Shown: positions 18,957-26,754, numbered from the stretch's first letter. The stretch: DNA of 64,000 bases from an uncultured Bacillota bacterium (GCA_946617625.1 CAMOKF010000001.1:22064-86063), one strand, 5' to 3'. The notes: generated from the sequence alone by a model not told the origin. A program made the numbers and translations.

Positions 18957-20117
18957 CTAAATAATTTTACTTAAACTATAAAATTTATCTTTACTATATT
19001 TAGCCAACTTTATATTATTTGGATTACATTGATTTATATAAATAATGTCATTATTATATAGTTGTTTACTACTAAATGCATTTTTTATTTGTTTTGATAT
19101 ATATCTTATAAAATTAACTGGAACACCTTGAGCAATACATTGAATAATTGGTGTTTTACATCTAGGTGTAAACTTAAAATCATTTGGATAACCCATCAAA
19201 GCAGCATACTCTCTTACGTAAAAATCTCTATTTTCTATTGGATGTATTATTTTAACGACAGACGCTAATGATGGAGCTCTATCATTTAATTTTGGTCTAT
19301 ATGGAGACTTGTCCCATATATTTTTATTATTATTAATCTTATCTTTAATTTTTATAATATCTTTTTTAACACTATCTGATAAATCTAAATCATCTAGATG
19401 TTCTACCTTAGATAATGCTACATATAAGCTCTCCTTTTCTTCTACCTTATCATAAAACTTAAACAACGATTCATCAGATTGTTCTGTAAAATTGCAATCA
19501 GTAGAAGAATAATCTATATTATTTAATACATTTTCTATATTGCAACGTTTACTATCTTGAACTATTTTAGGAATACCTGAAAAATTATCTCTGTTCCAAC
19601 CTATTATAAAAGTTCTACGTCTATGCATTGCAACATTATGATTACCGGCAATATCATTAATGATAGTAAATCTATAATTAGATAATAATTTTATCATATC
19701 TTTTAATATGGGCAAACCAGTAGTAGTCAATGTTGGAGCATTCTCTATTAAAAATGCTTTTGGATTAATTCTGTCTACCATTTTAAAAACATTATATAAA
19801 TATTTATTTACATCATTATCTACTTTAGCATTTCTATTTATAGAAGAAAGTCCTGAACAAGGTGGATTTGAAAATAGTAAATCGTAGTTTTCATCTTTTA
19901 ATTCATTTAAATAAGATTCATTATTTTCATATTCACTTGGAAGCTTTACTTCTATTTCTGGATAGTTTAACTTAAAATAGTGTGCATTTTGTTCTAACAT
20001 ATCATCGGTCATTTCAAGAATAGTATTTACATCCCATCCTTCTAGTAAATGACCTATAGTTTGACTTCCAGAAAATATATACATACCAATAGCTTTCATA
20101 ATTAGTCTCCTATGCAC
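18957..20117 (-). CDS. DNA (cytosine-5)-methyltransferase-like protein
   Basis: Motif I-like IFSGSQTIGH, motif IV FSNPPCSGLSSIN (Pro-Cys catalytic dipeptide), ENAP (motif VI ENV-like). Confidence 0.6.
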   Translation of the reverse strand: MHRRLIMKAIGMYIFSGSQTIGHLLEGWDVNTILEMTDDMLEQNAHYFKLNYPEIEVKLPSEYENNESYLNELKDENYDLLFSNPPCSGLSSINRNAKVDNDVNKYLYNVFKMVDRINPKAFLIENAPTLTTTGLPILKDMIKLLSNYRFTIINDIAGNHNVAMHRRRTFIIGWNRDNFSGIPKIVQDSKRCNIENVLNNIDYSSTDCNFTEQSDESLFKFYDKVEEKESLYVALSKVEHLDDLDLSDSVKKDIIKIKDKINNNKNIWDKSPYRPKLNDRAPSLASVVKIIHPIENRDFYVREYAALMGYPNDFKFTPRCKTPIIQCIAQGVPVNFIRYISKQIKNAFSSKQLYNNDIIYINQCNPNNIKLAKYSKDKFYSLSKII

Positions 20118-21370
20118 ATATTATATAGCTTTTTCATCATAATATCTCTATCAAAGACAGATTTATAATAATTATAAGCGTTATTTCTATACTCATCGTA
20201 TAAATCCATATTAGAATTAAGCTCATTCATAAGATTAAGTGTTTCTAAAGGATTATTTTCATCATACACAATTGTACCAATATCTTTTAGAGTATAATTA
20301 TCTAGTCTATCTCCACAGAAATTAGCACTATCATACAAATCTTTTCTAATAATTGGAATTGTACCACAAGCTACTATTTCTAATAAAGTTATTTCTAACT
20401 GTCCACCAAACTGTGGTCCAGTAAAAGTGAAAAACATACCAAATTTTGCTTTACTCAATCTCTCTAAAGCTTCTAATCTTACATATGGTCCATATATTTC
20501 CAAAGGATGATTACGATAATTTTCTATATTTTCTAAAACATCTTTTGGATTACCATTATCATTATAATTATTATCTTTTCTTAAGTCACCATATTTATTA
20601 GTTTTAGAATCATATTCCCATATAGCTTGCTTAGCATTTATAGAACGTTCAATTCCTTCAGCCACTGAAACATAATTATTATTCATAAGATATTCATAAT
20701 GAAATTCTCTAAAATACGTCCAACCCTTCCATAAAGCGGAACGTCCAATGAACCAACAAGTCTTATCTATCTTATCATTTGTCCAAAATCTATTTCTTAA
20801 ATCTTCGAAGTCTGTAGATATTAATTGTAACTGTTCTATTTTATAATTAGGTTTATCATTAATTAATGGTTTATTAATTAATGGCTTTACTTTTTTATTT
20901 ATAAACTTAGTACAAAAATCTGCTTGTTTATGATGAACAATAATTTTATCTAGAATACTAAAAAATCTCTTTATATAAGAACTATCTAAACAATAAAAAT
21001 TGCGATTAATGCTATGAATCTTATTATCTACTTGAAGATATACTAATTTTGTCCCATTATTATGCATATTTTCTAAAGTCAATAGAAAATTTTCAATAGT
21101 TTCTTCTGGATAATTTTTAGCTGGAACAGACATTATAATACATATATCTGGATTAAAACCAATTTTAGTATCTTCTAATAAACCTTCTTTAATAAAAGAA
21201 TGTTCCACAAAATCAGTTTCTTGCATATTTTTTCTACCCCAAGATTTGTCAGTTCCAGTAATAGTAATTACATTATTATTAATAGATTTTATATATTCTT
21301 CTAATTCAATAGTAATTCTAGTATTACCAGTACCTTCTGTACCTCTGGCTAATAGTAATAAAACGTTCAT
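20102..21370 (-). CDS. GT-B-fold glycosyltransferase (GT4-like)
   Basis: C-terminal FGMFFTFTGPQFGGQLEITLLEIVACGTIPII resembles the E-x7-E donor-binding motif region of GT4 enzymes. Confidence 0.5.
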   Translation of the reverse strand: MNVLLLLARGTEGTGNTRITIELEEYIKSINNNVITITGTDKSWGRKNMQETDFVEHSFIKEGLLEDTKIGFNPDICIIMSVPAKNYPEETIENFLLTLENMHNNGTKLVYLQVDNKIHSINRNFYCLDSSYIKRFFSILDKIIVHHKQADFCTKFINKKVKPLINKPLINDKPNYKIEQLQLISTDFEDLRNRFWTNDKIDKTCWFIGRSALWKGWTYFREFHYEYLMNNNYVSVAEGIERSINAKQAIWEYDSKTNKYGDLRKDNNYNDNGNPKDVLENIENYRNHPLEIYGPYVRLEALERLSKAKFGMFFTFTGPQFGGQLEITLLEIVACGTIPIIRKDLYDSANFCGDRLDNYTLKDIGTIVYDENNPLETLNLMNELNSNMDLYDEYRNNAYNYYKSVFDRDIMMKKLYNMCIGD

Positions 21371-21614: not shown

Positions 21615-22928
21615 TTAATTCTCCTTTATTATTTCTAATTCTATTAATTTATTTTTAAAATCTTTTTTAGATATAAATAAATCATCTACATAATTAACTA
21701 AAGCTGTTCTATATAAAAGTAATTTTTTAATGTTTAACACTTCATTACTTGATTCTAATGTACCATATGCAATATCTTTAAAAAATTGAATATCCTTATC
21801 ATATATATGTAGTGACATTGCATAATGATTATATGTTCCTACGTCTACATCTAACAATTCTGCTATATACTTTTGCAATGAAATGAAAAATCCTAAATCA
21901 TTAAGTACGCCATATCTCAAATCATTGCTACGCATAATTGTTGTACTATGTAATTTTTTATTTCTTATTTGATAGTTTAAACATATTGTACAAGGTTCAT
22001 CTTTAGTCTCTATTACTTTTTTATTAGGTATATTAATGTTTATAATAGCTCTTCTTGAATATGGGTCTTTTTTAAGCAATTCTACTATTTTTTCTATTTG
22101 ATTAAATCCATATTTTTGCTGTATTAAATACCCATAAGCCGAATTTGCAGTTAATCCATCATCTGAAACCTTTTCCCATAAACTAGCAAACTTACTAATA
22201 AATTTCAAATCATTTCTAGATGACCAATACCATAATAATTCTGCTGCTAAATATGTTAAATTAGTACCACCAGATTTCAAAGAAACATATTCATTATCTA
22301 AATCTGAAATAGAAAAACTATAATTACATAACTCTAAAGTGTGTCCTCTAGTATTTCTAGTTTCCATTGGATGTCCATTTTCTAAAACATCTCTGGCAAC
22401 TTGTCTATAAACAATGTTAGTAGTAGTTTTTCCATAATGACTATCTATCCAAGAATCTAACTTATCATAAGCATTATCTTCAGCTATATCGATAATATAA
22501 AAATTCTTATAATTATATTTATCTTTAAAATCCTTAGCTAATTTAGTAAAATGCTTATTTTGTGCTTCCATTATTGGAATAAAGCTATCTTCTCCACGTT
22601 CTTTGAGTCTTTTATTTATAATACTCATATCACTACTTATAAATACTATAAATAAATCATTATTATCTATAATTCTTTTGTTGATAGTTTCATATTCTTG
22701 AATACTTAACTTACAATCTCTATTATAAATAATTGGATATATCATTTCTCCAAAATGAAATCTTTCTAAAACTACATTATTTTGATAATCTAGTAAATTT
22801 ATATGATAGCCAAAATCATTTCTAGTTTTAGATGTAGAGTTAATTATAGACATATTATATTTAATTTTTAATTTATTCGATAATGTTGTTTTACCAGCTG
22901 CATCTAAACCTTCTAATATAATATTCAT
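21615..22928 (-). CDS. fusion: P-loop dNMP kinase domain + thymidylate-synthase/dNMP-hydroxymethylase-family domain
   Basis: N-term MNIILEGLDAAGKTTL (dNMP/thymidylate-kinase P-loop); C-term aligns with ThyA: ELLWYW, DPYSRRAIININ (RRIIVSAWN), DEPCTICLNYQI (catalytic PC), TIMRSNDLRYGVLNDLGF (QLYQRSCDVFLGLPFNI), SLHIY (THLY). Confidence 0.75.
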   Translation of the reverse strand: MNIILEGLDAAGKTTLSNKLKIKYNMSIINSTSKTRNDFGYHINLLDYQNNVVLERFHFGEMIYPIIYNRDCKLSIQEYETINKRIIDNNDLFIVFISSDMSIINKRLKERGEDSFIPIMEAQNKHFTKLAKDFKDKYNYKNFYIIDIAEDNAYDKLDSWIDSHYGKTTTNIVYRQVARDVLENGHPMETRNTRGHTLELCNYSFSISDLDNEYVSLKSGGTNLTYLAAELLWYWSSRNDLKFISKFASLWEKVSDDGLTANSAYGYLIQQKYGFNQIEKIVELLKKDPYSRRAIININIPNKKVIETKDEPCTICLNYQIRNKKLHSTTIMRSNDLRYGVLNDLGFFISLQKYIAELLDVDVGTYNHYAMSLHIYDKDIQFFKDIAYGTLESSNEVLNIKKLLLYRTALVNYVDDLFISKKDFKNKLIELEIIKEN

Positions 22929-22940
22929 ATGTAATTACTC

Positions 22941-23861
22941 CTATATCTTCATATACCAATTCTTCATAAAATCGCAATCACAGTTTAATGGTAAATCAAT
23001 TAAATCTGATGGAGCAGTTCTCATTAGATAAGATAATCTTTCTGCAACTTCTTTTTGATTTTCTTCAGGACACTCAACTATAACTTCATCGTGAACTTGA
23101 ATTATTAAATGCGCATCTAGTCTATTTAACTCTTCATCATTATTTATTTTAATCATAGCGAGCTTAGTCATATCGGCCGCGCTCCCTTGCACTCGCGAAT
23201 TAACACATTGTCTCTCTGCTTGTGATATAAATCCTGTATTATCTTTAATAACTATTCCATCATTTTTTCTTACATCTTGTATAAATTGATTTTTATTCTG
23301 CCAACCATAAATACTATTAAGTTCTTTAATATATGAATTCTTAATATTTATAGGTACCTCATTTGTATCTAAAGAAAAGTTTAATGGGTCAAATATTCTT
23401 GAATTTCCAGATAAATATTTAAAAGAGTATGGCTCTAATTGCATATCTGAAATGTGTCTTCGTCTTCCCCAAGCTGTAGTAACATACCCTTTCTCTTTAG
23501 CCATCTCTTGACTAGCTTCAATAAAATCTGCTAATTGTGGAAAAGCTCTTAACACAGCATCATATATCTCTTGAGCTTCTTTATTAGAAACATTTAATTG
23601 TTCAGCAATAGATGGAATCTGTCTTCCATAAAGAATACCTAATACAATACTCTTTGCCTGTGTTCTTCTTTCTTTACCTTCCACATTAGTTGAACCATCT
23701 TCATTGAACTCTAAGCATTCTTCATAACTTTTATGAAATGCTAAACTTGAAATAGTTGAATAAATATCTCTTCCATCGATAAATGCTTGCATCATCTTTT
23801 TATCTTGAGATAGATAAGAAGTAATCATTGGCTCCTGTTGTGACCTAAGAATAGTCAGCAC
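22941..23861 (-). CDS. family-A DNA polymerase, C-terminal part (motifs B and C); GTG start as drawn lacks motif A
   Basis: ITSYLSQDKKMMQAFIDGRDIY = PolI IMAHLSRDKGLLTAFAEGKDIH; motif B RTQAKSIVLGILYG; QGSAAD; motif C IQVHDEVIVE. Confidence 0.85.
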   Translation of the reverse strand: MLTILRSQQEPMITSYLSQDKKMMQAFIDGRDIYSTISSLAFHKSYEECLEFNEDGSTNVEGKERRTQAKSIVLGILYGRQIPSIAEQLNVSNKEAQEIYDAVLRAFPQLADFIEASQEMAKEKGYVTTAWGRRRHISDMQLEPYSFKYLSGNSRIFDPLNFSLDTNEVPINIKNSYIKELNSIYGWQNKNQFIQDVRKNDGIVIKDNTGFISQAERQCVNSRVQGSAADMTKLAMIKINNDEELNRLDAHLIIQVHDEVIVECPEENQKEVAERLSYLMRTAPSDLIDLPLNCDCDFMKNWYMKI

Positions 23862-23901
23862 CCACCATCACATATCTAGTTCTTGTTGCTAACTTTTTCA
23901 A
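23845..23901 (-). other. out-of-frame mini-ORF encoding polymerase motif A strand (TTG-KKLATRTRYVMVGADYS-TAG) with its own SD
   Basis: Minus strand AAAAGGGGGTGATAATAT-TTG...AGA TAT GTG ATG GTG GGT GCT GAC TAT TCT TAG; VMVGADYS = PolI VIVSADYS / T7 VLVGADAS; frame is -1 relative to 22941..23861. Confidence 0.4.
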
Positions 23902-23906
23902 TATTA

Positions 23907-24593
23907 TCACCCCCTTTTCCTATACCACTTTGGATATGTATATCTATTTCTTTTATAAGTATAATAACCTTGTTCTACACTTTGCTTAATTTTTCTTTGA
24001 TATACACACTCTGTTTTAGTATCAAATGGATTATCTATTTCTTTCCACCACTTCCAAGCATCTCTGTATGAATGAAATTCTAATTTTTCGCCTGTTTCCA
24101 TTATGCAATAACAACTTATTGACCTAGTATCACCAGTACCAAAATTATGGTTTCCTTTCATACTATTCGACAATCTTGCTCGGTGCTCATCAGTAAATAA
24201 TTCACCTAAAGCGGCTTTTCTCTTCATAGTTTCAGATATTTTCTTTCTTGTCTCTTCACTTCGCATACGTTTTTTATGTTTATCTCTAACATATGGTATG
24301 TCCATAACATTATTATCTCCGCCATCTACCATATTATAACCACTATTTATACTATCAAACTTATGTATGTAATAATTTTCTAGCTCATTTAATGTATCTT
24401 TATCTTCAGCAAAGCATATAACTTCCCAACTAAAATTATCTTCTCCATATTTTCTTATAGCACAATGAAATTGAACCTTACTACCATTTTTTGCGTCTCT
24501 AAGATGTCCTCTTTTTCTATCTAGTAATTTACGTCTTGTCTGTCCAATATACACTTTACCATTTATATTATTAGTAACCTTATATATTAACAA
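23907..24593 (-). CDS. GIY-YIG homing endonuclease (free-standing, inside polymerase gene)
   Basis: N-terminal IYKVTNNINGKVYIGQTRR...R..GH (GIY-YIG core), own SD GGAGGTG and TTG start. Confidence 0.85.
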   Translation of the reverse strand: MLIYKVTNNINGKVYIGQTRRKLLDRKRGHLRDAKNGSKVQFHCAIRKYGEDNFSWEVICFAEDKDTLNELENYYIHKFDSINSGYNMVDGGDNNVMDIPYVRDKHKKRMRSEETRKKISETMKRKAALGELFTDEHRARLSNSMKGNHNFGTGDTRSISCYCIMETGEKLEFHSYRDAWKWWKEIDNPFDTKTECVYQRKIKQSVEQGYYTYKRNRYTYPKWYRKRG

Positions 24594-24608
24594 ATAGTCA
24601 CCTCCAAT

Positions 24609-26126
24609 TTAATAATAAATTAATATATTATTATTGTCAGTAAGATTAACGATATTGGTGATAATAATCTCAAACTTGGCGTCGTTTTCGCTAACTAATA
24701 ATTTATCACCAACCACAAGATTACTAACGTATTTCCAGCCATCCGGCGTTTCAACCTCACTCCATTTTTTGACACAGAATGAATTATTAGACTCTTCTAC
24801 TATATCATCACTAGAATATGCTTTAAACATCGTTCTTATCTCTTTATTATGAGATGGAATATTCTGCATATTCGGGTCACTAGAACTAAATCTTCCTGTC
24901 TTAGCACCATATTGATTATAATTACAATGTATTCTACCATCATCATAAATAATTTCAGGCATCTTATCTATGTATGTAGACAACAATTTATCCGTTCCTC
25001 GTATATTTAAAATAGCCTCACATAAGTCTTTTTCTATATTATTTTGTGCAAAATGTTTAAGAATTTCTTCACCAGTACCTCTTGGAGATTTTTTAACTGG
25101 ACTTTCTAATTTTAAAATATCATAGAACAATATTGCAAGTTGTGTTGGACTTCCAATATTAATTGGGTCATTTAGTTTATGATTAGGATTATGTAGTTTA
25201 TATTGACTTATTTTTGAGTCATATTTATTTAGTATATTATTTATGACATCTGTCTGTTCTTCTCTAATTTTGTGATATTTATCTTTTAATTTATCACAAA
25301 CATCTAAATCAAGACAAACGCCTCTGTCTTCCATATCAGCACAAACATTTATAATAGGCATCTCAATATTTTTAAATACATTATATGGACCTTCCATATT
25401 ACTTTTTTCTAAAATATTCTTTTGATACTCATACAGCTCAAATGTTTTTATTGCATCTCCAGCTGCATATAAATATGCTGATGATATAGGAACTAAATCA
25501 AATGATACACCATTAAATAATTTATCAAATGTTAATGATTCTTTATCTAAACTATTACAATATTTTAAATGTAAATCTTTAAGTCCGTGTTTTTCGTTCT
25601 CGTTTATACAAAAACCAGCTAACATTGTATCCCAATAACATTCTAAATATAAATTCATAGTATGTCTTAATATTCTAATATCAAATTTAGCATTATGCAT
25701 AATCCATTTTCCATTGAATTTTTCTAATTCTAATTTAACATCATCAATATTTAACTGTGAATTTATTTTTTGACCAGTTATATACGATTTATGACCTATT
25801 GGAACATAAGCTGGTTTTTTGTTTGGAGTATAAAGACAAACACCAACTAAATCATCTCGCATAGTGTCTAATCCAGTAGTTTCTGTATCAATTGCACAAA
25901 TATTATTTTTAATAGCTTTCGAGATATATTCGCACAAATCATCTATGTTTTGAATTATTAGATATTTATCTTTATACTTACCAAGTTTATTTTCAGCACT
26001 AGAAACAATCTCCTGTATTTTAGCAGCAATATTATTAGTTCTTACGCTTTTAGGCTTAGCAGATTTAACTTTATTTAATAATTCCTTATCTGAAACTTTA
26101 GGTTTTTCAAATAAACCTCTCGCCAT
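24609..26126 (-). CDS. family-A DNA polymerase, N-terminal part (3'-5' exonuclease + first half of polymerase domain); last 55 codons Hint-like/intervening sequence
   Basis: Exo I ICAIDTETTGLD; pol region IIYDDGRIHCNYNQYGAKTGRFSSSDPNMQNIPSHNKEIRTMFKA = PolI [48 protein letters not shown]; homology stops at about residue 436. Confidence 0.9.
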   Translation of the reverse strand: MARGLFEKPKVSDKELLNKVKSAKPKSVRTNNIAAKIQEIVSSAENKLGKYKDKYLIIQNIDDLCEYISKAIKNNICAIDTETTGLDTMRDDLVGVCLYTPNKKPAYVPIGHKSYITGQKINSQLNIDDVKLELEKFNGKWIMHNAKFDIRILRHTMNLYLECYWDTMLAGFCINENEKHGLKDLHLKYCNSLDKESLTFDKLFNGVSFDLVPISSAYLYAAGDAIKTFELYEYQKNILEKSNMEGPYNVFKNIEMPIINVCADMEDRGVCLDLDVCDKLKDKYHKIREEQTDVINNILNKYDSKISQYKLHNPNHKLNDPINIGSPTQLAILFYDILKLESPVKKSPRGTGEEILKHFAQNNIEKDLCEAILNIRGTDKLLSTYIDKMPEIIYDDGRIHCNYNQYGAKTGRFSSSDPNMQNIPSHNKEIRTMFKAYSSDDIVEESNNSFCVKKWSEVETPDGWKYVSNLVVGDKLLVSENDAKFEIIITNIVNLTDNNNILIYY

Positions 26127-26127
26127 T

Positions 26128-26754
26128 TTAACCTCTTCTACTTCTTCTAGTTACTTGCTGTTCTGTATTGTCTTCACTACCATTTTCTGGAAATGCTCCA
26201 GTATCTATATAAGTATTAATTTCGTCTACAGTCTTATCTAGAATAAAACTTCCTAATAAATTAGGTCTTTCTACATCTTCAACATTTATTGGAGTAACAT
26301 CTGTAGCAGGTATTACTGTATATGTAGTATTTTGGTCACCTTTAGCTCCATTTCTAATTATTCTAAATGGTACTTTAGTAAAATCTGGATATTGAGTTGA
26401 ATAACCCTTCAATGTTTCTAAGAATTTTTTACCTCTTTGCCAAATCTTAACTTTCTTATCAGTGTGGTCGTAAAGACTCAAAATAATAACTGGCTTACGT
26501 TGGCTTCCTCTTTCACATAGTGGACATACATCTAATGGGTCATCATAATTTCTCTTACAATCTAAAAATCTAGTTTTAGATTGACCATTTTTGTACTTAA
26601 CTTCAACTTCGTGTACACTAAAAATATCTAAGTCATCTAAATCTTTAAATAAAAATTGTACTAGTGCACTATCATTGTTATTTTGAAGTTTAAACCAATC
26701 GTTACCAGTATTGTTTGAATAACTATCAACTTCATTAAAATTAATTCTTGCCAT
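26128..26754 (-). CDS. possible ssDNA-binding protein (T4 gp32-like zinc motif)
   Basis: H-x17-C-x10-C-x2-C (HEVEVKYKNGQSKTRFLDCKRNYDDPLDVCPLC) resembles gp32 His-Cys3 site; located next to polymerase and primase. Confidence 0.45.
   Translation of the reverse strand: MARINFNEVDSYSNNTGNDWFKLQNNNDSALVQFLFKDLDDLDIFSVHEVEVKYKNGQSKTRFLDCKRNYDDPLDVCPLCERGSQRKPVIILSLYDHTDKKVKIWQRGKKFLETLKGYSTQYPDFTKVPFRIIRNGAKGDQNTTYTVIPATDVTPINVEDVERPNLLGSFILDKTVDEINTYIDTGAFPENGSEDNTEQQVTRRSRRG

Follow-up and report, generated by a model that had tools for sequence, protein, structure and literature searches.

Organization of the interrupted polymerase locus

We analyzed a stretch of 64,000 nucleotides (nt) from an uncultured Bacillota bacterium (GCA_946617625.1 CAMOKF010000001.1:22064-86063), referred to below as the window, with positions counted from its first letter. 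On its minus strand, a phage family-A DNA polymerase gene (PolA) is interrupted by a cassette of approximately 1 kb that carries a GIY-YIG homing endonuclease gene. The locus comprises 3 consecutive open reading frames (ORFs; 24609-26126, 505 amino acids (aa); 23907-24593, 228 aa with a TTG start; and 22941-23861, 306 aa). The first ORF matches the Pfam profile DNA_pol_A_exo1 and positions 18–149 of DNA_pol_A, and the third matches positions 160–381 of DNA_pol_A; the approximately 10 profile positions absent between the halves correspond to the β-strand that bears the catalytic Asp of motif A.

The uninterrupted homologs used for alignment (Clostridium phage FA88, Bacillus phage Flasso, Dp-1, and the metagenomic proteins P0002 and P0004, which are much closer at 72–75% identity) read ...IRTMFKA-QDG-[YF][IV][ML]VGADYS-QQEP[FM]LTSYLSQDKKMM... 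In the window, the PolA homology stops exactly after FKA (codon 24821-24819), returns at YVMVGADYS (23874-23848), and returns again at QQEPMITSYLSQ (from 23840). YVMVGADYS lies outside the frame of the 306-aa ORF and is 7 nt off register relative to S-QQEP (TCA, 23843-23841), and removing 7 nt yields exactly ...GADYSQQEP.... The catalytic motif A is therefore broken by a stop codon (TAG) and a shift of frame between YVMVGADYS and S-QQEP. The features of the locus are as follows:

24819..26126, minus strand: PolA N-part proper (3'-5' exonuclease and N-terminal part of the polymerase domain; Pfam), ending in NMQNIPSHNKEIRTMFKA and collinear with the uninterrupted homologs up to FKA
24612..24818, minus strand: cassette-encoded C-terminal extension (CTE) of 69 aa, composed of a 14-aa acidic linker and a 55-aa Hint-like β domain
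24818-24777, minus strand: acidic linker of the CTE, YSSDDIVEESNNSF, 14 aa
24776-24774, minus strand: Cys codon TGT, start of the Hint-like domain
24611-24609, minus strand: TAA stop codon closing the CTE
24598..24605, minus strand: Shine-Dalgarno (SD) sequence GGAGGTGA of the endonuclease gene, 4 nt ahead of its TTG, read from the sequence
23907..24593, minus strand: free-standing GIY-YIG/NUMOD3 homing endonuclease gene, 228 aa, TTG start (Pfam, PHROG, and PDB matches)
23907..23914, minus strand: SD sequence GGGGGTGA, assigned from the sequence to the true start of the C-part and overlapping the endonuclease TGA (23909-23907)
23875..23901, minus strand: cassette-encoded N-terminal extension (NTE) of the C-part, a TTG start followed by KKLATRTR, basic (+4)
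23848..23874, minus strand: HomR, the cassette-encoded replacement of the parental motif-A strand, YVMVGADYS, aligned to QDG-YVMVGADYS of the uninterrupted homologs
23856-23854, minus strand: GAC codon of the catalytic Asp, within HomR
23850-23848, minus strand: TCT, putative take-off codon of the translational hop proposed below
23844..23847, minus strand: coding gap, stop codon TAG (23847-23845) plus one base, G (23844)
23841..23843, minus strand: TCA (Ser), putative landing codon, followed by CAA CAG GAG CCA (QQEP)
22941..23840, minus strand: remainder of the PolA C-part (rest of motif A with QQEP, motifs B and C, to the stop codon; Pfam positions 160–381), collinear with the homologs

The GC content of the window is 26.8%. 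We found no terminator-like site in 22800-26300, which fits a single transcript. Both polymerase halves are under purifying selection, with ratios of nonsynonymous to synonymous substitution rates (dN/dS) of 0.09–0.37. Protein P0001 is identical to the window N-part; exact-protein look-ups of the window ORFs with their own boundaries gave no match, and megablast of the region against the INPHARED phages gave none either, so no near relative is present in that collection.

An initial annotation, made from the sequence, had described a PolA gene interrupted by about 1 kb and a free-standing 228-aa GIY-YIG gene with its own SD sequence and TTG start, and had placed the end of collinearity at FKA (24819). 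The profile matches to the 2 halves, the alignment with uninterrupted homologs, the Pfam matches to the middle ORF, and the SD sequence GGAGGTGA bear this out. It had also stressed that the 3 ORFs share a single frame; this is true by coordinates, but it is incidental because the frames differ in relatives with a 5-nt gap. Collinearity, which had been thought to resume at about 23825, returns earlier, and the TAG stop together with the 7-nt register break of YVMVGADYS had been overlooked.

The C-terminal extension has a predicted partial Hint fold

The 69 codons that follow FKA are open, an event with an estimated chance probability of about 0.002 at 27% GC (from base composition), and they are conserved in relatives whose polymerases are only 56–61% identical, with dN/dS of 0.2–0.46 (Nei-Gojobori). 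The AlphaFold model of the CTE, built from an 8-sequence alignment, is all-β with a pLDDT of 79. Profile matches are weak, with Pfam Hint_2 at E=0.096 and further matches to the BIL domain and the gp41-1 intein. In the HMMER alignment, CTE residues 20–41 pair with residues 6–27 of the gp41-1 split intein, and the window Cys falls on intein position 1; across the cassette family, this position is occupied by C, S, E, I, V, T, K, or M. Approximately 55 CTE residues align to Hint structures of 126 to more than 170 residues, that is, to about half a Hint fold. The CTE is retained in every cassette, including those that have no endonuclease gene (described below). We regard it as a protein domain, conserved and under selection, that is predicted to adopt part of a Hint fold and was presumably co-opted. 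Its linker has a net charge of −4 to −6, compared with +3 to +5 at the start of the second polymerase half.

The endonuclease gene and the start of the second polymerase half

The middle ORF matches the Pfam profiles GIY-YIG (2e-8) and NUMOD3 (1.7e-5), the homing endonuclease family of PHROG (1e-34), and the I-TevI catalytic domain in the PDB (1ln0/1mk0), and its dN/dS is 0.07–0.26 (Nei-Gojobori). Its start lies 15 nt from the stop of the N-part ORF, and its TGA stop codon (23909-23907) overlaps the SD sequence of the next ORF. An equivalent SD sequence of the GGTGAT type precedes the start of the corresponding mini-ORF in the cassettes examined.

The mini-ORF that begins at TTG 23901 (an alternative GTG start lies at 23910) reads M-KKLATRTR-YVMVGADYS and is closed by TAG (23847-23845). 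The NTE pattern M-[KN]-[KR]-[SL]-x-[RKT]-x-[RK] is conserved across the 23 junctions described below, and the NTE and HomR together (MKKLATRTRYVMVGADYS) have neither Asn nor His. By eye, the NTE with the next residue, MKKLATRTRY, is similar to the first strand of IntC from Npu DnaE, MIKIATRKYLG (4lx3_B). An 18-aa NTE+HomR profile gave no matches in the PDB, and we therefore treat the resemblance as a lead by eye only. As read from the sequences, this likeness and the pairing of a basic NTE with an acidic CTE linker hint at descent from a split intein and at binding between CTE and NTE.

The junction is conserved across the cassette family

We collected 23 distinct junctions: (i) 8 from relatives of the window N-part; (ii) 13 from a DNA pattern search that required TCT, TRR, and TCN and gave 15 loci (a first pattern that also required ...CCN ATG was too strict, and the 15 loci were obtained once ATG was dropped); and (iii) 2 from a survey whose query was the C-part protein of L017 only and which assumed nothing about the gap. 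Window-type queries for the tail or the C-part gave no matches in IMG/VR and GTDB.

All 23 junctions have the form GAC-T[AT]T-TCT, a stop codon, 0–10 more bases, UCN, and CAR-CAR-GAR. The stop codon is TAG in 15, TGA in 7, and TAA in 1. The gap, counted with its stop, measures 4 nt in 14 junctions and 5 nt in 7, with single cases of 3 nt (L049, TCT TAG TCA) and 13 nt (L066), so that the frame offset across it is 0, +1, or +2. The landing codon is TCA (14), TCT (4), TCC (3), or TCG (2). In 51 distinct uninterrupted alleles, the same positions are encoded by varied codons (Ser by TCA, AGT, AGC, TCG, TCT, or TCC; Asp by GAC or GAT; Tyr/Phe by TAT, TAC, TTC, or TTT), and the 9 bases before the stop are therefore frozen specifically in the cassette alleles. 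In the window, GAC makes up 13% of Asp codons and TCT 29% of Ser codons.

In the unbiased survey, the gap was present in 10 of 10 cassette alleles and fused in 0, and no gapless fused cassette (NTE-HomR-QQEP in one ORF) was found among the top 120 matches. Proteins of approximately 317 aa beginning MFKAQDG... are exon fragments of polymerases interrupted elsewhere. In 5 of the 23 junctions, the C-part frame has no ATG, GTG, or TTG upstream of QQEP, and in L066 the +1 frame meets TAA at once.

The sole GTDB match (L014; JBGVOD010000040.1, a 130 kb contig in a Lachnospiraceae fecal metagenome-assembled genome) is also the one case of a TAA-type gap (TCT TAA G TCT). This match suggests hosts among gut Clostridia/Lachnospiraceae, unless a phage contig was binned into that genome. 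The C-part ORFs of P0126 and P0129 begin MLTILESQQEP, compared with MLTILRSQQEP in the window, which implies a further gap variant, TCT TGA R TCN.

The cassette is mobile and varies in content

The cassette has the same layout in 8 window-related contigs, in the 15 loci of the DNA pattern search, and in the 2 obtained with no assumption about the gap. Between the window and one relative (L004), the parts of the locus have diverged to different degrees:

Polymerase N-part: protein identity 64%, dS >2
Polymerase C-part: protein identity 74%, dS >2
Tail (CTE): protein identity 84%, dS 0.46
Endonuclease: protein identity 92%, dS 0.30
NTE+HomR: protein identity 100%, dS 0.09

Toward both flanks, the identity declines gradually, the pattern expected of co-conversion. 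Empty-site counterparts of cassette alleles exist in IMG/VR, and their flanks are 94–96% identical. In such near-isogenic pairs, the parental sequence ...MFVA-SDG-YVLMSSDYS-QQEPKVM... corresponds to ...MFVA-[CTE]...[endonuclease]...M-KRSIRTRKS-YVLMSSDYS-[gap]-S-QQEPKVM... in the cassette allele. The 9 aa encoded by HomR are identical to those of the empty allele, with only 18 of 27 nt (L049 versus L082) or 20 of 27 nt (L066 versus L048) the same, and the parental SDG is lost from the cassette allele in both pairs.

Several IMG/VR cassettes (L016, L022/L061, L023/L025/L069/L070, and L028) have no endonuclease gene and retain the tail, NTE, HomR, and the stop with its gap; these endonuclease-less cassettes are as short as 305–372 nt. 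In L024 (reverse strand, about 4092-5049), a LAGLIDADG_3 endonuclease occupies the GIY-YIG slot. Extra ORFs lie between the tail and the endonuclease in L066 (1441-2428, PAPS-reductase-like) and in L049 (1959-2670) and L017 (756-1332), the latter 2 of approximately 190–236 aa. From these varied ORFs and endonucleases in one slot, the cassette therefore picks up cargo.

A translational hop would rebuild motif A

The cassette consists, in order, of the 69-aa CTE, the GIY-YIG gene, a new SD sequence and start with the basic NTE, the recoded motif-A strand, and a stop codon with one base. We consider it almost certain that a cassette of this kind has divided the polymerase into 2 polypeptides, and likely, on the comparison of sequences, that the gap is decoded by bypass; the explanation as a whole, in which a mobile GIY-YIG cassette splits PolA just upstream of motif A and a 7-nt hop (UCU-UAG-G-UCA) rebuilds the motif, is likely.

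In detail, TTG 23901 would start the second polypeptide. Once UAG occupies the A site, the peptidyl-tRNA-Ser would detach from the take-off codon UCU (23850-23848), the mRNA would slide by 7 nt, and the tRNA would re-pair at UCA (23843-23841), so that decoding from CAA would give ...VGADYS-QQEP.... The restored sequence would read YVMVGADYSQQEPM, and the product would carry the tryptic junction peptide YVMVGADYSQQEPMITSYLSQDK; the peptide string YVLMSSDYSQQEPK would serve as a trace of the hop product in public gut and rumen metaproteomes. The 2 polypeptides would be reassembled non-covalently, and the CTE and NTE probably aid this reassembly. If T4 MobA and gene 60 are a guide, the recoded strand and the gap probably protect the carrier DNA from the endonuclease that it encodes. 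As far as the compared sequences indicate, bypass of this frame-independent kind, a 'stop-hop', would be the only event that fits all gap variants, and it would also give the parental protein exactly. By analogy with gene 60, the conserved basic nascent peptide of 18–19 residues is a candidate stimulator of the hop.

A long hairpin is predicted in the window (23826-23922, minus strand), in which the SD sequence and first codons of the mini-ORF (GUGAU…GAAAAAGUUAGCA) pair with the take-off and landing region (UGCUGACUAUUC…GGUCAC). Among 8 relatives, one pair covaries (G-C to C-G); fold z-scores range from −0.25 to −2.4, the window scoring −2.4. A local hairpin at the take-off codon (UGACU...GGUCA) was rejected as a general requirement, being absent in TAG-T-TCC variants; in window-type cassettes, 92% of its cells are paired, without covariation. 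Neither the long hairpin nor the local inverted repeat is conserved in the IMG/VR branch. A tRNA-Gln(UUG) gene recurs in this phage group (window 1093-1163, minus strand; L004:2751-2823; L005:2943-3014; L008:358-431), and its copies in the relatives lie immediately upstream of the polymerase module; L008 encodes a tRNA-Met in addition. Among the phage tRNAs, we found no tRNA-Ser with a bearing on the hop.

Several points weigh against this mechanism. The bypass is argued from comparative sequence, and the immunity role of the gap and the binding of CTE to NTE are drawn by analogy. No strong stimulatory RNA structure conserved across the whole cassette family was found, and the stop-hops that Weiss et al. 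obtained in E. coli constructs in 1987 were reportedly inefficient, at about 1%. Because the DNA pattern demanded TCT, TRR, and TCN, the loci selected by it are uninformative on TCT, stop, and TCN, and these elements can be tested only in the 8 window relatives and in the 10 loci from the unbiased survey. Lastly, the cassettes share ancestry, and their junctions are not fully independent observations.

Inserts at other sites of the polymerase gene

Inserts also occur elsewhere in this polymerase family. L009 contains a second insert at motif B (3050-4115; …KSIVLG|ILYGR…), which is a group I intron (Intron_gpI, E=1.9e-5 and 0.012) with AAGAUAUAGUC and which holds another GIY-YIG/NUMOD3 gene (3243-4007). 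The proteins P0017, P0049, P0072, and P0091 end in a conserved read-through, RQNNMPLYSVMSIANYVNPITQGCVA*, which is part of the L009-type motif-B intron. L013 has an insert at a third site (1071-1905), in which an HNH_3 endonuclease gene (1116-1838) is followed by AAGATATAGTCC; this is probably another group I intron, and the L013 polymerase is in at least 3 coding pieces, plus the hop.

Alternative explanations

The initial annotation preferred a group I intron in which the GIY-YIG gene is embedded, such that the insert of approximately 1 kb would be spliced from the mRNA and a single polymerase translated. Group I introns with endonuclease genes are known in phage polymerase genes generally, and they occur at other sites of this very family (L009 and, likely, L013). 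The covariance-model check that the annotation proposed, run here as a permissive Rfam scan of 23600-25100, gave no match to Intron_gpI (group I) or to a group II intron even at E≤10, and at the gathering score the whole window gave only a tRNA; the scan is sensitive enough because it detected the L009 intron at the values given above. The window insert contains no P7-type AAGATATAGTC element, and a ribozyme core would not fit because only 15 nt lie 5' of the endonuclease gene and its 3' side overlaps the next ORF's signals. Furthermore, the 207 nt on the 5' side encode a protein domain under selection, the endonuclease-less cassettes of 305–372 nt keep the CTE, NTE, and gap, and excision at any boundary upstream of RYVMVGADYS would leave TAG plus 1 nt between ADYS and QQEP. 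The intron is thus effectively refuted, and we give it very little remaining weight. An active intein or a split intein, in which the Hint-like tail and the start of the C-part would splice, in cis or in trans, to one polymerase chain, might be suggested by the predicted Hint fold of the tail, by the window Cys aligned to intein residue 1, by the likeness of the NTE to the first strand of Npu DnaE IntC, and by a layout that recalls the 'fractured genes' (PMC2677866). The tail, however, is about half a Hint domain with a non-conserved position 1 (C, S, E, I, V, T, K, or M) and, in the window, no block-B-like His; downstream there is neither block F/G nor a terminal His-Asn, and NTE+HomR has no Asn. 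Splicing from Cys1 would also leave the 14-aa linker in the polymerase and the motif A gap unrepaired. Because position 1 is variable, the Hint fold is halved, and blocks F/G and the terminal His-Asn are absent, we exclude protein splicing and hold an intein of either kind to be very improbable. The annotation had rightly seen that there is no room for a C-terminal intein half (nothing like blocks F/G follows downstream) and that the insert's 5' end is Hint-like, with a Cys at residue 1; that this part is a relic does not agree with its retention in every cassette and the selection on it. Its remaining option, a 'fractured gene' expressed as 2 polypeptides, comes closest to our explanation but misses the stop and the frame break in motif A.

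The gap itself could be crossed by frameshifting (+1 in the window, +2 elsewhere) or by readthrough, giving ...DYS-(R/K)-S-QQEP with 1–4 extra residues in motif A. The 4-nt gap of the window is formally a +1 event, and +1 shifts are classically stimulated by a stop codon in the A site; many variants would gain R/K-S as extra residues, and in the window the product would be YVMVGADYSR plus SQQEPMITSYLSQDK. Yet one homologous cassette would then need +1, +2, readthrough, or +1 across 13 nt, the +1 frame of L066 meets TAA immediately, and the tRNA-Ser on UCU is unable to re-pair at the overlapping CUU. No homolog with an insertion between DYS and QQEP was seen (0 cases), and, as the empty alleles show, the ancestral protein reads DYS-QQEP. 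Recoding of this type, including the window product just named, is therefore unlikely in our view. Three separate polypeptides, with an 18-aa mini-ORF product that ends at TAG, a C-part that starts by itself or by termination-reinitiation, and a catalytic-Asp peptide that binds non-covalently, would agree with the many junctions in which GTG, TTG, or ATG occurs in the C-part frame 6–30 nt from the landing codon (GTG 23861 in the window, stop-overlapping TTG codons created by TGA-type gaps, and ATG-GAG-TCA in L066). Nevertheless, the 5 of 23 junctions mentioned above have no canonical start upstream of QQEP, and the C-part start positions are not conserved and none has an SD sequence, whereas the mini-ORF starts examined have a strong one of the GGTGAT type. 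The landing Ser, which would be unconstrained, is invariant, and we know of no precedent for an 18-mer that supplies the catalytic strand of a polymerase palm; 3 chains are thus distinctly improbable. In a single sequence, a stop and a frameshift in a catalytic motif would be typical of a pseudogene or of an indel error, but here independent samples and assemblers yield the same interruption at 23 distinct junctions, purifying selection acts on both polymerase halves, and we noticed no second DNA polymerase in the vicinity of the replication module; to a dead gene or a sequencing or assembly error we give almost no credence. Transcriptional slippage was ruled out because the window has no homopolymer run, and stop-codon reassignment because all 3 stops occur and the frames differ.

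Comparison with known bypass and split-gene systems

The MobA element of T4-like phages, reportedly treated by Bonocora and colleagues in 2011, is the nearest parallel. It is a cassette of CTE, endonuclease, NTE, HomR, and bypass that splits the topoisomerase into genes 39 and 60 (bioRxiv 10.1101/2022.08.31.505936). The T4 element and the PolA cassette are alike in that (i) their parts come in one order, from the in-frame CTE of ORF1 through the free-standing endonuclease, the NTE of ORF2, and HomR to the gap; (ii) HomR replaces deleted host sequence at about 67–81% nt identity; (iii) the take-off codon is followed directly by a stop and has a matching landing codon; and (iv) both are mobile, with near-identical empty alleles, and their endonuclease is lost or swapped while CTE, NTE, and gap stay. 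The endonuclease-less PolA cassettes (the 'hit and run' state) parallel the MobA clades that lost the endonuclease. In T4, the gap rather than HomR was proposed to block self-cleavage by MobA (Manning & Atkins, bioRxiv 10.1101/2022.08.31.505936).

The 2 systems differ in the host gene (PolA motif A versus the Toprim domain of Topo2L), the endonuclease (GIY-YIG versus the HNH protein MobA), the length of NTE+HomR (18–19 aa versus about 45), the gap (3–13 nt, 4 nt in the window, versus 50 or 20 nt), and the codon pair (Ser UCU/UCN versus Gly or Asp). A Hint-like CTE is found only in the PolA cassette, which in turn has no conserved UUCG-tipped take-off stem-loop and no mini-SD 5–7 nt before the landing site. 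We saw no sequence homology between the PolA cassette and the MobA element, and on sequence grounds we regard the former as an independent analogue of the latter, not as a member by descent. According to Manning & Atkins, the bypass cassette 'remains unique' to Topo2L (bioRxiv 10.1101/2022.08.31.505936).

Stop-hops between matched codons are known from synthetic E. coli constructs, and a natural in-frame stop-hop was not known at the time of a 2016 review (PMC5009743). As in these constructs, matched codons flank the stop in the PolA cassette, and L049 (TCT TAG TCA) is the exact case in which '9 nt specify one amino acid'. By contrast, the synthetic stop-hops are low-efficiency artefacts, whereas the PolA cassette is conserved in an essential phage gene; unlike the in-frame synthetic stop-hops, moreover, most versions of the cassette change frame (10–11 nt for one amino acid in the window type). 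For the 10-nt inserts in the terminase of Streptomyces phage phiHau3, bypass has the support of a junction peptide seen by mass spectrometry (Antonov et al. 2023, PMC10732093). This is likewise a short coding gap in an essential phage gene, but one that is triggered by a rare UUA codon, was proposed to be regulatory, and has no link to an endonuclease or a split gene.

In 'fractured genes', the gene halves carry split inteins, which trans-splice, and are separated by a free-standing endonuclease gene (Dassa et al. 2009, PMC2677866). The PolA cassette shares with them a GIY-YIG gene between the halves of a replication gene and a Hint-derived module at the end of the first half, and the best sequence match of its CTE is the gp41-1 split intein of that study (PMC2677866). 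Unlike fractured genes, it has neither a C-intein nor catalytic residues, so that no trans-splicing is expected, and it has a translational gap instead. Aeh1 nrdA/mobE and Aeromonas phage 25 gp43 with its GIY-YIG gene are reported as endonuclease-split genes without an intein or intron, in which an essential enzyme gene is split and the halves act as a complex; for NrdA (Aeh1), the CTE and NTE tails matter for activity. Unlike the PolA cassette, these cases have neither a coding gap or recoding nor a Hint-like tail. No description of a PolA-linked bypass was found in the full-text literature within the library searched.

Genomic neighborhood

Directly downstream of the polymerase, the window encodes a fused thymidylate-kinase-like and thymidylate-synthase-like protein (21615-22928, minus strand) and, further on, a homolog of the T4-type DNA alpha-glucosyltransferase (20102-21370, minus strand). 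These genes suggest that the phage DNA in the window may bear hypermodified (hydroxymethyl and glucosyl) pyrimidines. Relatives carry TAGT/DpdA-like genes in place of the thymidylate and glucosyltransferase genes. In L004, a free-standing GIY-YIG gene (141-854) lies between the DnaB helicase and primase genes. The replication module of these phages is a hotspot of homing endonucleases.

Implications

To our knowledge, natural programmed bypass is known from very few systems, namely the T4 gene 60 family, the yeast mitochondrial 'byps', and the phiHau3 candidate. The PolA cassettes provide dozens of natural variants of a putative minimal hop (gaps of 3, 4, 5, and 13 nt, 3 stop codons, and 4 landing codons), a series in which the requirements for ribosome take-off and landing could be explored. 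Current annotation treats such polymerases as truncated or frameshifted ORFs and overlooks the true N-terminus of the second half.

A more far-reaching interpretation joins 3 propositions: the combination of an endonuclease with hop immunity evolved at least twice independently, the cassette is a degenerate split intein, and its hop is an efficient, minimal, frame-independent stop-hop. We advance it tentatively and lean slightly against it as a whole. Under this joint interpretation, the N-half of a Hint domain would have been kept as the acidic CTE and an IntC-like basic strand as the NTE, splicing having been lost and the halves being zipped together; a hop of 3–13 nt from UCU to UCN, perhaps aided by the basic 18-aa nascent peptide, would serve an essential replicase in phages of gut Firmicutes. 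It also suggests a route by which split inteins may decay into non-covalent assembly modules.

The PolA cassette is of high interest to the fields of recoding and mobile elements. If the proposed mechanism is true, it would be the first natural programmed stop-hop and would offer a compact, portable bypass signal; the combination of endonuclease, tails, recoded homology, and gap would then be a general strategy for the invasion of conserved catalytic motifs rather than a T4 one-off.

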